Assembly: GCA_963708075.1 (NCBI GenBank)
Contig: OY970194.1
Span: 4,736,001 to 4,800,000, forward strand
DNA from: Sedimentisphaerales bacterium
Lineage (GTDB): Bacteria > Planctomycetota > Phycisphaerae > Sedimentisphaerales > Anaerobacaceae
Direction of reading: 5' to 3'
DNA length: 64,000 nt
Made by a program: the position numbers and the translations under genes. Positions within the stretch are counted from its first letter, which is position 1, and the number at the start of each line of letters is the position of its first letter. The notes below the pieces were generated by a model. The model was given only the letters and a program-made list of their open reading frames with translations. It did not search any database and was not told the DNA's origin. This document shows, one piece after another, positions 32,120 through 48,532 of this stretch.

Positions 32120-32376
32120 GGGTGGCACGGGCAAACTGGCTTTGCCCGTGGGGGCTTCAGATGCGCCTGTTCCATCGAGACAGCACCGTCAAACGAGTTG
32201 GGTTCGTCCCAAATCCTTGAGATCGAGCCTGTGCAAGCTGCGCAGTCGGGTGGCAGCGTCAAGGCCGAAGGCCTTGGCGATGGCGAATGGGCAAGACCAT
32301 CGCCAAGCTGCGCTTGACGCTGCCACCCAAAACTCAACAACTTGGGACGAACCCAACGAGTTTGGCGGTGCCACCC
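32120..32376. repeat. Composite REP-like cluster
   Basis: Several GGGTGGCA/TGCCACCC-bounded palindromes, including the 81-bp unit at 32248-32328 that is homologous to 50530-50619 and 57005-57093. Confidence 0.85.
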
Positions 32377-41933: not shown

Positions 41934-43087
41934 AGCAAAAAAGCCGGGCTGTAAGTCCCTGGGCCACAGGGGGTTACAAGTCTTGTCGTTATCTAACATA
42001 TATTCCTGTAACATTCTGCCCTCCGGGAGCGTCTATTCTGTATGGTCTTACGACCATCGTTCGCCCGGCGAGGCTGTGTGCAGGCAGGCCTGCGGCAGGG
42101 CTCAATCGTAAATCAAAACTCGTAAATCGTAAATCCTAAGTTCCTGGAGGGCTTCCCATGGGTAGCCAAGCACGAGTCGCCGCCAACCGTCGTAACGCCG
42201 CCAAATCCACCGGACCCCGCACGGTGGAGGGCAAAGCCGTCGTGGCCCGGAACGCCGTCAAGCACGGCCTGTGGGCCCGCCAGGCCGTGCTCAGGAACGA
42301 AGATCCGCAGGAATTCGAGCTGCACCGCAGTCGGATGCTCCGGAAGCTGGCTCCGGATGGGCCGGAGGAAGAGGCGATGGCGGAACGCATCGTCGGTTCT
42401 CTGGTGGCGGCTCAAACGGGCCGAACGCATGCAGGATGAGGCCCTCGATTATCTGATCGAGGCGGATCGCGGCAGCGACTGGGTCAAGTGCCGCCGTGAG
42501 AACCGCGATCCATCGGCCAGGGCCGAGCTGAGCTTCGGGCGGGCGGTCGCGCGGGACTTCGCCGAGACAAGGACCCTCGACCGGCTGACAATGCACGAAC
42601 GGCGGATCGAGAGCAGCCTGTACCGGACGATGAAGGAGCTGCGGCAGCTCCGGCGAGAGGAAAAAGGCCAAGACGGGCACAGGGCATCGAGTTCGCACAA
42701 TTTGAGGGATCACGACGGGTGGCAGCGGCAAGCGCAGCCTGCGGAGCTTGCCGATGGTGTTGGGCTGCATCCTGACGCCATCGGCAAGCTGCCGCTTGCC
42801 GCTGCCACCCAGAACTCAACAACCTGGGACAGACCCAACTCGTTTGACGGTGCGGATTCGAAGAGTTCCGGCCATCCGAAAGTCCACGGGCAAACGAGTT
42901 TGCCCGTGCCACCCGGAGGGAGCGATTCCGCGAAACAAAGCCAATTCGGGGAGCCTCAAGGCGACCATCGCCAAGCTGCGCTTGACGCTGCCACCCATAC
43001 CGTCGTAAGCGACTGTGCGAAACAAAGCCAATCGGCGGAAGTCCCAAGTCTGACGTGTGAAGTGTCAAGTGAGGCTGGCCCGGCGGC

Positions 43088-44310
43088 CAGGGCTATCGCA
43101 TCTAAATGCCAAGGACCTTAAGCAGGTAGTCTCGGTCCCAGCCGGCTCGGAGGCGTTTGGCGGCGATGCCGCCCTTGGCCGTCTTCTCCTGCTTGAGCAG
43201 CATCAGGGCGATTCGACGCAATCGCGAGAAGTTCTCGGCGGCGTTGGCCACTCGGACTCGACTGGCGTCCTCATGGAAACTCACGTCCAGCGACCAGTGC
43301 AACTGGACCTCCACGGACCAGTGATGGCGAATCAATGTCCCCAGACGCTGGGCACAGTGTCCCGGATGGGAGCTGATGAAGTAGTGTCGCTTTCGTTCGC
43401 ACTGGCCGTTGACCTGACGCTCTCGCTCGATGGCCGTGAGGCTGCCCAGACCCGGCCAGTCGTGACGCCCTTGCAGCCATCCCACATCGCTGGTAGTCCA
43501 CACCCGCCGGGTTTCCAGTCGTCCATGGCCTTTTTCCACGGTTTCCCAGAAGTCCTGCTCGCCGGCAAACCCGTGGGCGATGCCGTCCTCCATGTACATC
43601 CGGGCATCCTCGTACAGAGTCCCTTGGTTAGCCTTGAGGGCCAGCACATAGTCGCCGCCCTGATCGACGATCTGCTCGGCGATCTCCTTTTGACAACCCA
43701 TGGCGTCAATCGTGATGGTTGCCTCCTCCACGTCGAGCAGCTTGAGCAACTCCGGGATCGCGGTGATCTCATTGCTCTTGGCATCGACCGCCCGTTGGCC
43801 GAAAGCCACGCAGTTCTCGTGGACCCAGGCACTGACCATGTGCAACGGGCCTTTGGCACGGACCCGATCAAAGCTGTTTCGCAGGGTCTTGCCGTCGATG
43901 GCGATGTGCTTGCCCCGGCTGCTGCCGGCCAGATCCGCCACAAACGCCTGCATGACCGCTTCAAACGCATCCGGGTCCAGGGCGGCAAAGACCCGACCAA
44001 AGGTATCATGCGATGGAATGCCATTGGGCAGGTCCAGAAACGTGCCAAACCATTCCTCGTTGACGTTGCCGAACATCTCTACGTCCGTCCAGTGCTCAGC
44101 CCCGCAGATCACGGCACAGACGCCAATGACCAGAATATCCTGTAATTCATGCCGTTTCGTCCGCTCCACGCGAGGATCAGGAACCGCGGCAAAATGATCC
44201 CAAATCGATTTCTTCATCAAAAACGTATTCCTCTCTACTTGAAGTGTCTTGCTTCTGAGAAGAATACGAAACCATGCCTGCAAAGGCTCAATTTAGATGC
44301 GATAGCCCTA
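43088..44310 (-). mobile_element. ISAs1-family insertion sequence (1223 bp)
   Basis: IRs (C/T)AGGGCTATCGCATCTAAAT at 43088-43107 and 44291-44310; 10-bp TSD GCCCGGCGGC at 43078-43087 and 44311-44320. Confidence 0.95.
43102..44217 (-). CDS. ISAs1-family DDE transposase
   Basis: [58 protein letters not shown]. Confidence 0.96.
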
Positions 44311-44572
44311 GCCCGGCGGCCGAGGACAAACCAACGTGCGAAACAAAGCCAATGGAGACGCCTGGGGCCGAGTGTGCGAGACAAAGCCAATCTGTGACGG
44401 CGGAAGGTGGGCACTGCCCACCCTACAAAACGGATCGTGCGAAACAAAGCCAATGCCGCAAGCCGGCCGCGGGCGCTGGGGCCATGCTGCGGCCACGGCC
44501 GCGGGTCGCATACCACTGCCACGACATCGCCCGCTCGTACTGATCGACGGGAAAGACCGGCAACGCGGCTCG

Positions 44573-44947
44573 AATCCGCCACCGAAGGCCAACCCCACCC
44601 CATTCCCCGGGTATGGTCGGAATTCGGTGGCGGCGTGTAGCCGCCGTGTGCGGACTGCGCCTCTTTCGTCCCTTACGGGACTGGCTTTTGTCCTCGGCCC
44701 CGGTTCCCCAGCGATCAATCGCTGGGCTATTCTCTGTCGCCCTCCGGGCTTGGACTTGGCTCCAGTCCTCTTGCGTCGGCCCGTCCGCCCCACGGGGGCG
44801 ATCGACACTAGCCCACCGTTTCAACGGTGGGTACGATAGTCAATCCTATCTCAAAGCCCCGTAGGGGCGAAAGAAGACTGGGCTGCGCTCTTGTGTCGGG
44901 TGGAATCCAAATCCGCCACCGAAGGCCGACCTCACCCTGTTCCCCGG
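44573..44947. repeat. REP-like cluster bracketed by ~38-bp imperfect direct repeats
   Basis: AATCCGCCACCGAAGGCC..CACCC..TTCCCCGG at 44573-44610 and 44910-44947; internal palindromes CCCAGCGAT.AATCGCTGGG and CCCACCGTT..AACGGTGGG. Confidence 0.75.
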
Positions 44948-47726: not shown

Positions 47727-48461
47727 ATGGACTTATCGATCGTTATACCAGCCTTCGAAGAGTGCCGGAAGATCGCGCGGGATGTAGAAGCCGCCGCGGC
47801 GTTCCTGCAGACCAACAGGCTGGCGGGCGAGGTCGTGGTCGTGGACGATGGGAGCTGCGACGGCACGGCGGAGGCGGCGCGGGCCGTCCGCGTTCCACCG
47901 GCCGTCAGGCTCAACGTGATCCACTACGACCAGCACCGGGGCAAGGGCTGCGCCGTCCGGACCGGCATGAACGCCGCCGGCGGCAAGTACGCCATGTTCG
48001 CCGATTGCGGCCTGTGCATTCCGTACAACAACGCCCTCAAGGGGCTGGAGATGCTCAAGAACGGTGCCTGCGACATCGCCCACGGCTCCAGGCGGCACAT
48101 CGCCAGCGATATTCACAGGGCCCAGCCCTGGCATCGGCGCGTCCTGTCACAGGCGTTCAAGTCCACCGTTCGGACGCTTCTGAGAGTCCCCCCGGAACTC
48201 GCCGACACTCAGTGCGGGTTCAAAATGTACAAGGGCGACGTCGCGAGAGAGCTTTACAGGCAATGCACCACTGATGGGTTCATGTTCGACATCGAGATCA
48301 TTCTGCGGGCCATGAAGAGGGGTTATCGCATCGCGGAATTCCCCGTCGAGTGGACCTGCGACCCCGACAGCCGGCTCTCCGTCGCCCGCACGCCCTGGCC
48401 CGTGCTCTCCGAGCTGCGAAGAATCCGACGAGCCATGTCCAACAACAGAAGTGAGATGTAA
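47727..48461 (+). CDS. GT2 dolichyl/polyprenyl-phosphate glycosyltransferase-like
   Basis: LSIVIPA, VVDDGS.DGT, GKG.AVRTG, DTQCGFK, FDIE. Confidence 0.9.
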   Translation: MDLSIVIPAFEECRKIARDVEAAAAFLQTNRLAGEVVVVDDGSCDGTAEAARAVRVPPAVRLNVIHYDQHRGKGCAVRTGMNAAGGKYAMFADCGLCIPYNNALKGLEMLKNGACDIAHGSRRHIASDIHRAQPWHRRVLSQAFKSTVRTLLRVPPELADTQCGFKMYKGDVARELYRQCTTDGFMFDIEIILRAMKRGYRIAEFPVEWTCDPDSRLSVARTPWPVLSELRRIRRAMSNNRSEM

Positions 48462-48532
48462 GATGTTTGATGGTTGATGTAAAGAGTGCTCGCGCCCAAA
48501 TCAAACATCACACTTCACACATCAAACATCAC
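48451..48532. repeat. Inverted heptamer-repeat hairpin between convergent genes
   Basis: (GATGTAA/GATGTTT/GATGGTT)n ... (CAAACAT/CACACTT/CACACAT)n. Confidence 0.7.

Follow-up and report, generated by a model that had tools for sequence, protein, structure and literature searches.

The locus studied here raises the question of what kind of element joins a gene to a tail of short repeats and variable spacers. It lies in a 64,000-nt stretch of DNA from a Sedimentisphaerales bacterium (the window), in which the first-pass annotation had described an STGPRT-family gene ending in a repeat-spacer array and had proposed a non-Cas system that captures or diversifies segments of the genome's own repeat families. 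We compared the locus with its source genome (G000; 7.5 Mb, one contig, 92.8% complete), with members of the same genus and with other phyla. Judged by these sequences, the module is likely a DNA-binding-site system that swaps units by recombination, not one of CRISPR-like DNA capture.

Anatomy of the window locus

The module starts at 41935, the 5' limit of homology between paralogues, with a conserved leader (41935-42157, plus strand) delimited by alignment of nine paralogue leaders. Within the leader lie, at about 41950-41978, a box forming an imperfect palindrome and, ahead of the start codon, a run of heptamers; a scan of it gave no sigma-70 consensus. Codons 1-80 of the STGPRT-family gene follow (42158-42397, plus strand), matching eight intact paralogues at 61-96% identity by tblastn and profile search. 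The gene had been read as one open frame from 42158 to 44543. Relative to the paralogues it is split: the first frame stops at 42439, and the profile match breaks into residues 1-80 and 80-188 at a putative frameshift, one extra base at 42394-42397 (plus strand). The remainder of the conserved helical domain lies in a second frame (42398-42716, plus strand), as identified by tblastn and profile matches and by the structure model of an intact paralogue, and without the insertion sequence described below that frame runs 303 codons uninterrupted, up to the usual end of the gene. The extra base is absent from contigs of X1, X3 and X4, which diverge at many other positions and probably represent paralogues of the window gene; among the contigs of X1-X4, none spans the array or the frameshift of this locus. 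The window gene appears to be a broken copy of a dispersed module made of leader, all-helical gene and motif tail, its frameshift being either a true lesion or an assembly error.

The array is preceded by two nested hairpin repeats of dispersed families (42717-42915, found as inverted repeats); the composite REP previously noted there corresponds to two hairpins, 42717-42810 and 42837-42915. The 16-nt motif was recovered at all five of its reported positions, each time on the plus strand (42930-42945, 43017-43032, 44338-44353, 44376-44391 and 44439-44454), against a chance expectation of 0.03 per window and with none of 100 shuffles reaching five. Four are in the QSQ frame and the third is in the TKP frame, again as reported. 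The spacers, also on the plus strand, reproduce the lengths of 71, 72, 22 and 47 nt. Spacer 1 (42946-43016, class C4) carries the 3' half of an abundant hairpin repeat. Its 34-bp match (42963-42996 to 32295-32328) is exact, but 29 exact copies exist genome-wide and the match names no source. Spacer 2 measures 72 nt without the insertion sequence and one target duplication. Its left part (43033-43087) holds a heptamer run resembling, by eye, that at 48451-48532, and terminates in the target duplication 43078-43087; its right part follows the second target duplication (44311-44320) within 44311-44337. Spacer 3 (44354-44375) is unclassified. Spacer 4 (44392-44438), described as holding a REP half, does fall in class C3, a short hairpin repeat piece, but has no match of at least 36 bits outside arrays. 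The conserved 3' tail (44455-44600, plus strand) encodes a C-terminal peptide with its stop at 44543, and homology to the paralogues ceases near 44600. Rfam gave no match over the array.

The insertion sequence in spacer 2 belongs to the ISAs1 family (43088-44310, minus strand; transposase at 43102-44217, NF033564 match) and is flanked by a 10-bp target duplication. Its 13 genome copies are 99-100% identical, have unrelated flanks and 8-10-bp target duplications, and reflect a recent expansion. Within spacer 2 it is an unrelated passenger. After the module, two opposed matches to the Rfam family Acido-Lenti-1 (44707-44750, plus, and 44786-44831, minus; 43 and 36.4 bits, cut-off 37) sit within a larger composite hairpin repeat, and Acido-Lenti-1 behaves here as a dispersed repeat. 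The approximately 95-bp hairpin family represented at 42717-42810 is abundant in G000 and patchy across the genus, with high numbers in about ten members and zero or one match in seven. The two genes flanking the module in the window are not adjacent to each other in the listed genus genomes.

A motif that accompanies one protein family

Forty-one arrays with at least two motif copies each were found in G000, totalling 287 copies (292 by weight matrix). The motif is non-palindromic, and in every array all copies lie on one strand. Arrays end all nine copies of the STGPRT-family gene; the other 32 are gene-less. The gene's leader, detected by profile, stands directly before 13 of the 32, which are therefore deletion derivatives of the module, and one more has a leader 1.5 kb upstream. 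Only 20 motif-like sites occur outside arrays in 7.5 Mb. Across the 287 copies the motif core is nearly invariant while the spacers diverge, and the array strand is 38% G compared with 25% C. At G000:C1:650826-650930 a single motif-box-motif unit, both of whose motif copies are variants, escaped the strict array call, and at G000:C1:6490051-6492610 two short arrays face each other across a Ser/Thr kinase gene.

In G000 the downstream gene is co-oriented with 32 of the 41 arrays, and a sigma-70-like site lies within 130 nt on the same strand at 12 of the 32 gene-less arrays (opposite strand, 0), compared with 141 of 3000 random intergenic stretches (4.7%); the two facts overlap. In other phyla, co-orientation with the next gene (16/26) was not significant, and the 32 proteins scanned downstream of arrays are mixed housekeeping functions with no common pathway.

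The first-pass annotation had asked whether the motif recurs 3' of homologues, and in most loci it does. Of 46 loci from 29 genomes, 34 (in 23 genomes) have a degenerate form of the motif downstream at a distance of up to 1.8 kb, and 2 have it upstream, so that its tie to this gene family holds across the Alphaproteobacteria, Acidobacteriota, Planctomycetota and Verrucomicrobiota; these loci are non-independent (10 come from one genome), include two weak matches, and were searched with degenerate positions that were partly assumed. Most of them carry one copy, and three alphaproteobacterial loci have reverse copies only. Within the genus the motif is present in 40 of 40 loci retrieved from eight members. 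One of these (G013) has direct arrays. In the other seven, 23 of 29 loci contain an inverted pair at a strict threshold, in which a forward copy comes 118-401 nt after a reverse one, and at three loci of one member (G001) the reverse copy falls within the conserved coding domain. The paired copies do not covary, the degenerate position matching in 12 of 23 (permutation p 0.38), which fits independent DNA sites and not an RNA stem. Collectively, the motif seems best described as a double-stranded DNA site.

Of 18 genus members, 17 carry the gene itself, with 1-24 matches each, as do 3 of 12 other genomes of the order; its nearest relatives come from Sedimentisphaerales and Planctomycetota. One relative, G006 (92% complete, 1450 contigs), has many arrays around the C5 unit introduced below; a gene match was seen at none of the 18 loci retrieved, with one weak match genome-wide, so the arrays may not need the protein. 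In a BLAST comparison covering five genomes, G011 and G025, where the gene is absent, have only one or two weak single motif matches among the matches listed.

A profile built from the eight paralogues identified 33,826 clusters at 50% identity. Pfam gave no match for the window ORFs, NCBIfam no usable match to the family, and PHROGs only two weak single-member matches, of no use. The structure model of an intact paralogue (pLDDT 89) is all-helical, a long helical hairpin preceded by a basic arm at the N-terminus. Foldseek returned no match at E 0.001, the best fold-search score (Z 8.7) belonged to generic helical hairpins, and these searches of the modelled paralogue revealed no nuclease, integrase or other catalytic fold. 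The proposed likeness to HGGxSTG proteins was supported for the arm, 32 residues of which align with the second half of one such protein at 41% identity (P 79.5). Unlike in that protein, the Cys/His part before the arm is absent and a long helical hairpin follows; the HGGxSTG model NF041373 matched none of the nine genes. The basic arm is predicted to bind DNA. A candidate catalytic tyrosine at the YER position was dropped, that position being His in the six most recently expanded or related paralogues. In the Atlas, unnamed clusters lie at 0.96-0.97; acidobacterial look-alike clusters with a SEC-C motif, at 0.80-0.82, are a lead to a possible fused nucleic-acid-binding part. A literature search outside subscription journals and supplements found nothing on this family or motif, nor did the available part of PMC3174227.

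Values of dN/dS from 0.14 to 0.55 (95 codons, 36 pairs) indicate that the family is under purifying selection. Of the 45 motif copies in the eight intact paralogues, 35 lie in one frame and 10 in another, with none in the third. Their reading frames stay open to or near the last motif copy, and seven share a related C-terminal peptide; any open frame exists in only 4 of 27 gene-less arrays of at least five copies. Frame use, open frames and the shared peptide thus point to constraint at the peptide level as well. The suggestion that conservation is nucleotide-level was right in that copies occur in three frames, on both strands and in non-coding DNA; it was incomplete in that intact genes keep a frame open through the array.

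Spacers as recurring unit classes

Spacers in G000 range from 17 to 250 nt. Their content differs between arrays, as had been anticipated, and for 184 of 250 a homologue sits in another array; they fall into eight main classes. Whole-spacer homologues are 75-89% identical, and spacer homology is overwhelmingly on the same strand (1225 pairs versus 105). For 61 whole-spacer pairs involving a gene-less array (gene-gene pairs left out), none of 87 comparisons revealed a shared neighbour, and the order of shared classes was concordant in 30 cases and discordant in 33. Loss from one ancestral order cannot explain this pattern. Their sequences mark the spacers as about eight inherited unit classes that appear to have been reshuffled between arrays.

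The spacers are indeed enriched for repeat pieces, which are present in 87 of 250 compared with a mean of about 23 (maximum 33) in 60 control sets. Multi-copy 16-mers make up 18% of spacer bases but 8-9% of intergenic DNA. With two long spacers left out, 115 of 244 spacers had a match of at least 36 bits outside arrays, versus 180/732 intergenic, 30/244 coding and 4/244 shuffled controls; in a search of the genome itself none of the 115 was matched over 90% of its length. The repeat pieces begin a median of 18 nt inside the spacer and never less than 4 nt from its edge. De novo repeat families are represented no more broadly in spacers (17 of 54) than in an equal amount of random intergenic DNA (16.5 +/- 3), and the same is true of the top 20 families (11 versus 10.8). 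More spacers with repeats but no more families means that the excess derives from a few repeat-bearing classes multiplied many times. The idea that the array samples the genome's repeats is not supported by these data: the pieces are internal to spacers, no piece has a unique source, most spacers recur between arrays and family breadth equals that of random intergenic DNA. Capture of repeat pieces is unlikely.

The heptamer class C2 lies near the leader and precedes C5 by 13 to 1. Class C5 contains a box of 29 nt, an imperfect palindrome, which can also be found at dozens of intergenic places outside arrays, compared with 3 matches on one strand of the reversed genome. The box is probably a host protein site and may resemble an IHF-type site. 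Motif-box-motif units of fixed spacing (50 units in four species) have 16-22 nt before the box and 25-26 or 16-17 nt after it. At threshold the box profile found only one leader; the likeness between leader box and C5 box is by eye. Intergenic C5-box sites in G000 include C1:272569, 4008386, 4011269, 5611178 and 5968568.

The paralogues are mosaics: two of them have leaders 73% identical and first 170 coding bases 100% identical. Among three metagenome contigs, one array is common to two (L109 and L110), and the third (L111) shares spacers 1-3 and switches inside spacer 4; this crossover falls inside a repeat piece, not at the motif. Module copies occupy shared sites across six relatives (G004, G008, G010, G014, G015 and G016), with none nearby in G000, and one G000 site is common to another organism. 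Flanks were collinear in only 3 of 20 relatives' loci; two of the three are motif-free in G000 but have other length differences, and in the third gap G013 has the gene, G000 a gene-less array that faces the other way. The shared sites and the shared gap indicate that gain and loss are slow. Comparison of relatives' loci with G000 found no clean empty site of the module. No terminal inverted repeats or target duplications were seen by eye at the module ends (41935 and 44600 sides), and the copies may be too old to retain them.

Competing readings and known systems

The reading we favour, at a probability of about 0.45, is that the family's own protein recognises the motif as a DNA site and that host recombination carries motif-bounded units from locus to locus, the repeat pieces travelling along as passengers. 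The 13-16-nt motif would be a double-stranded site to which the module's protein is predicted to bind, and the units it bounds would be duplicated, deleted and swapped among the 41 loci by recombination, possibly gene conversion. As no catalytic fold was found, host recombination functions would perform strand exchange. Ordinary repeat insertion may have brought the repeat pieces into a few founder units; multiplication would have followed, and new loci would arise slowly, mostly just upstream of host promoters. Several facts weigh against this reading: the one visible crossover falls in a repeat piece and not at the motif, G006 has many arrays but only one weak gene match, the module showed no terminal inverted repeats, target duplications or clean empty sites, its copies occupy sites shared by several species, the arrays of G000 are one-directional, G-rich on their own strand and often behind the leader, which suits a role in RNA, and spacer homologues only 75-89% identical are old enough for many ordinary deletions to have intervened. 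A bolder version is doubtful: one of the largest unnamed bacterial protein families would form a self-recognising element of a new kind, its protein binding the motif on DNA and bringing distant copies together, with the result that dozens of loci exchange motif-bounded cassettes and that new modules settle just upstream of host promoters with no transposase or integrase of their own.

The motif could instead act in RNA, the protein binding or processing its own mRNA tail and gene-less arrays serving as multi-site decoy or regulatory RNAs with hairpin fillers. We consider this somewhat unlikely. The single orientation of the arrays, the position of 13 of the 32 gene-less ones behind the gene's leader, the G over C bias and the same-strand spacer homology all suit it, and CcaF1-CcsR of Rhodobacter offers a precedent: a small conserved protein gene has repeated motif units in its 3' part, and processing of the 3' UTR releases the CcsR units as sRNAs (PMC8034643). 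Unlike in that system, the units here form part of the coding frame, motif copies can lie on either strand, and the gene product, which has no Pfam match, does not belong to DUF1127. The three loci with reverse copies only, the inverted pairs lacking covariation, the lack of an Rfam match over the array and the fixed-geometry unit around a palindromic box that also sits at dozens of intergenic sites are all difficult to reconcile with an RNA element. Slightly less probable still is that the motif is a host-factor site and the arrays a largely neutral, NIME-like mosaic grown by slippage and recombination, with the gene only its ancestral carrier. The arrays of G006, the random breadth of repeat families, the crossover within a repeat piece and the arrays ending beside host promoters (32/41 co-oriented; a sigma-70-like site no more than 130 nt away at 12/32, against 4.7% of random stretches) agree with it. 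It fits poorly with a motif that follows the gene in four phyla and is scarce elsewhere in G000, with the one or two weak single matches listed for the gene-less G011 and G025, and with a core nearly invariant over 287 copies whose spacers diverge. The original proposal, acquisition of the genome's repeat-family pieces between motif copies as guides or a catalogue, is improbable. It draws on the excess of repeat pieces (87/250 spacers; 18% of bases), on the leader-proximal C2 class and on similar pieces in relatives' tails. The unexceptional family breadth (17/54 and 11 of the top 20), pieces that never abut the motif, cover a whole spacer or name a unique source, lengths of 17-250 nt, and the failure to find Cas1 in G000 or a nuclease or integrase fold in the modelled protein all speak against it.

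CRISPR arrays consist of a leader followed by direct repeats with variable spacers, and so does the module. Unlike CRISPR, spacer lengths here span a more than tenfold range with no near-constant value, spacers recur as classes (184/250 with a homologue in another array), there are 41 loci, and arrays are translated inside intact genes; no PF01867 (Cas1) match exists in the 92.8% complete single contig of G000, and no spacer of the 115 with a match has a protospacer-like match over 90% of its length in its own genome. NIME arrays, in the part of PMC1797815 available, are many dispersed arrays of one short conserved repeat between filler families of about 20-200 bp, dynamic in number, invaded by IS elements and proposed as recombination substrates. 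A single repeat separated by filler families is shared, here with eight main classes in scrambled order. In the same partial source the NIME repeat dRS3 is a 20-bp inverted repeat, and NIME is reported only from Neisseria and without a cognate gene. The motif here is non-palindromic, one-directional in G000 and often translated, and it accompanies a protein family through several phyla. REP/REPIN-RAYT systems, as covered by the part of PMC3116915 available, likewise pair a gene with its own short DNA repeat, include derivatives that do not code and show long vertical persistence; differing from these, the motif is not a hairpin, the gene is multi-copy and the REP-like pieces are passengers inside spacers. 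No HUH/Y1 transposase was found by Pfam in the window ORFs or among the 25 NCBIfam families listed for 100 members. As in IS/MITE pairs, gene-less derivatives keep an end, the leader being retained by 13 of 32. For an integron or shufflon, no tyrosine recombinase is adjacent: the nearest of four PF00589 matches in G000 lies about 37 kb from an array. The module of gene and motif appears to be of an undescribed kind.

For a family of 33,826 clusters lacking a Pfam match any handle is valuable, and a conserved cis motif offers a direct and cheap one, an assay of protein with 16-mer. Should the protein bind and pair its sites, planctomycetes, acidobacteria and alphaproteobacteria would have a new route to genome plasticity, and many 'hypothetical proteins' would owe their odd repeated peptide tails to a DNA signal translated in different frames. 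There is a lesson in the negative result as well: repeat-filled spacers can mimic an acquisition system yet be inherited, reshuffled units. The family extends to longer proteins as well: one Planctomycetaceae genome (L018, L022, L025-L032) has at least 10 such members, about 500 residues long in L018, and eight of them have the motif 1.2-1.6 kb from the start.
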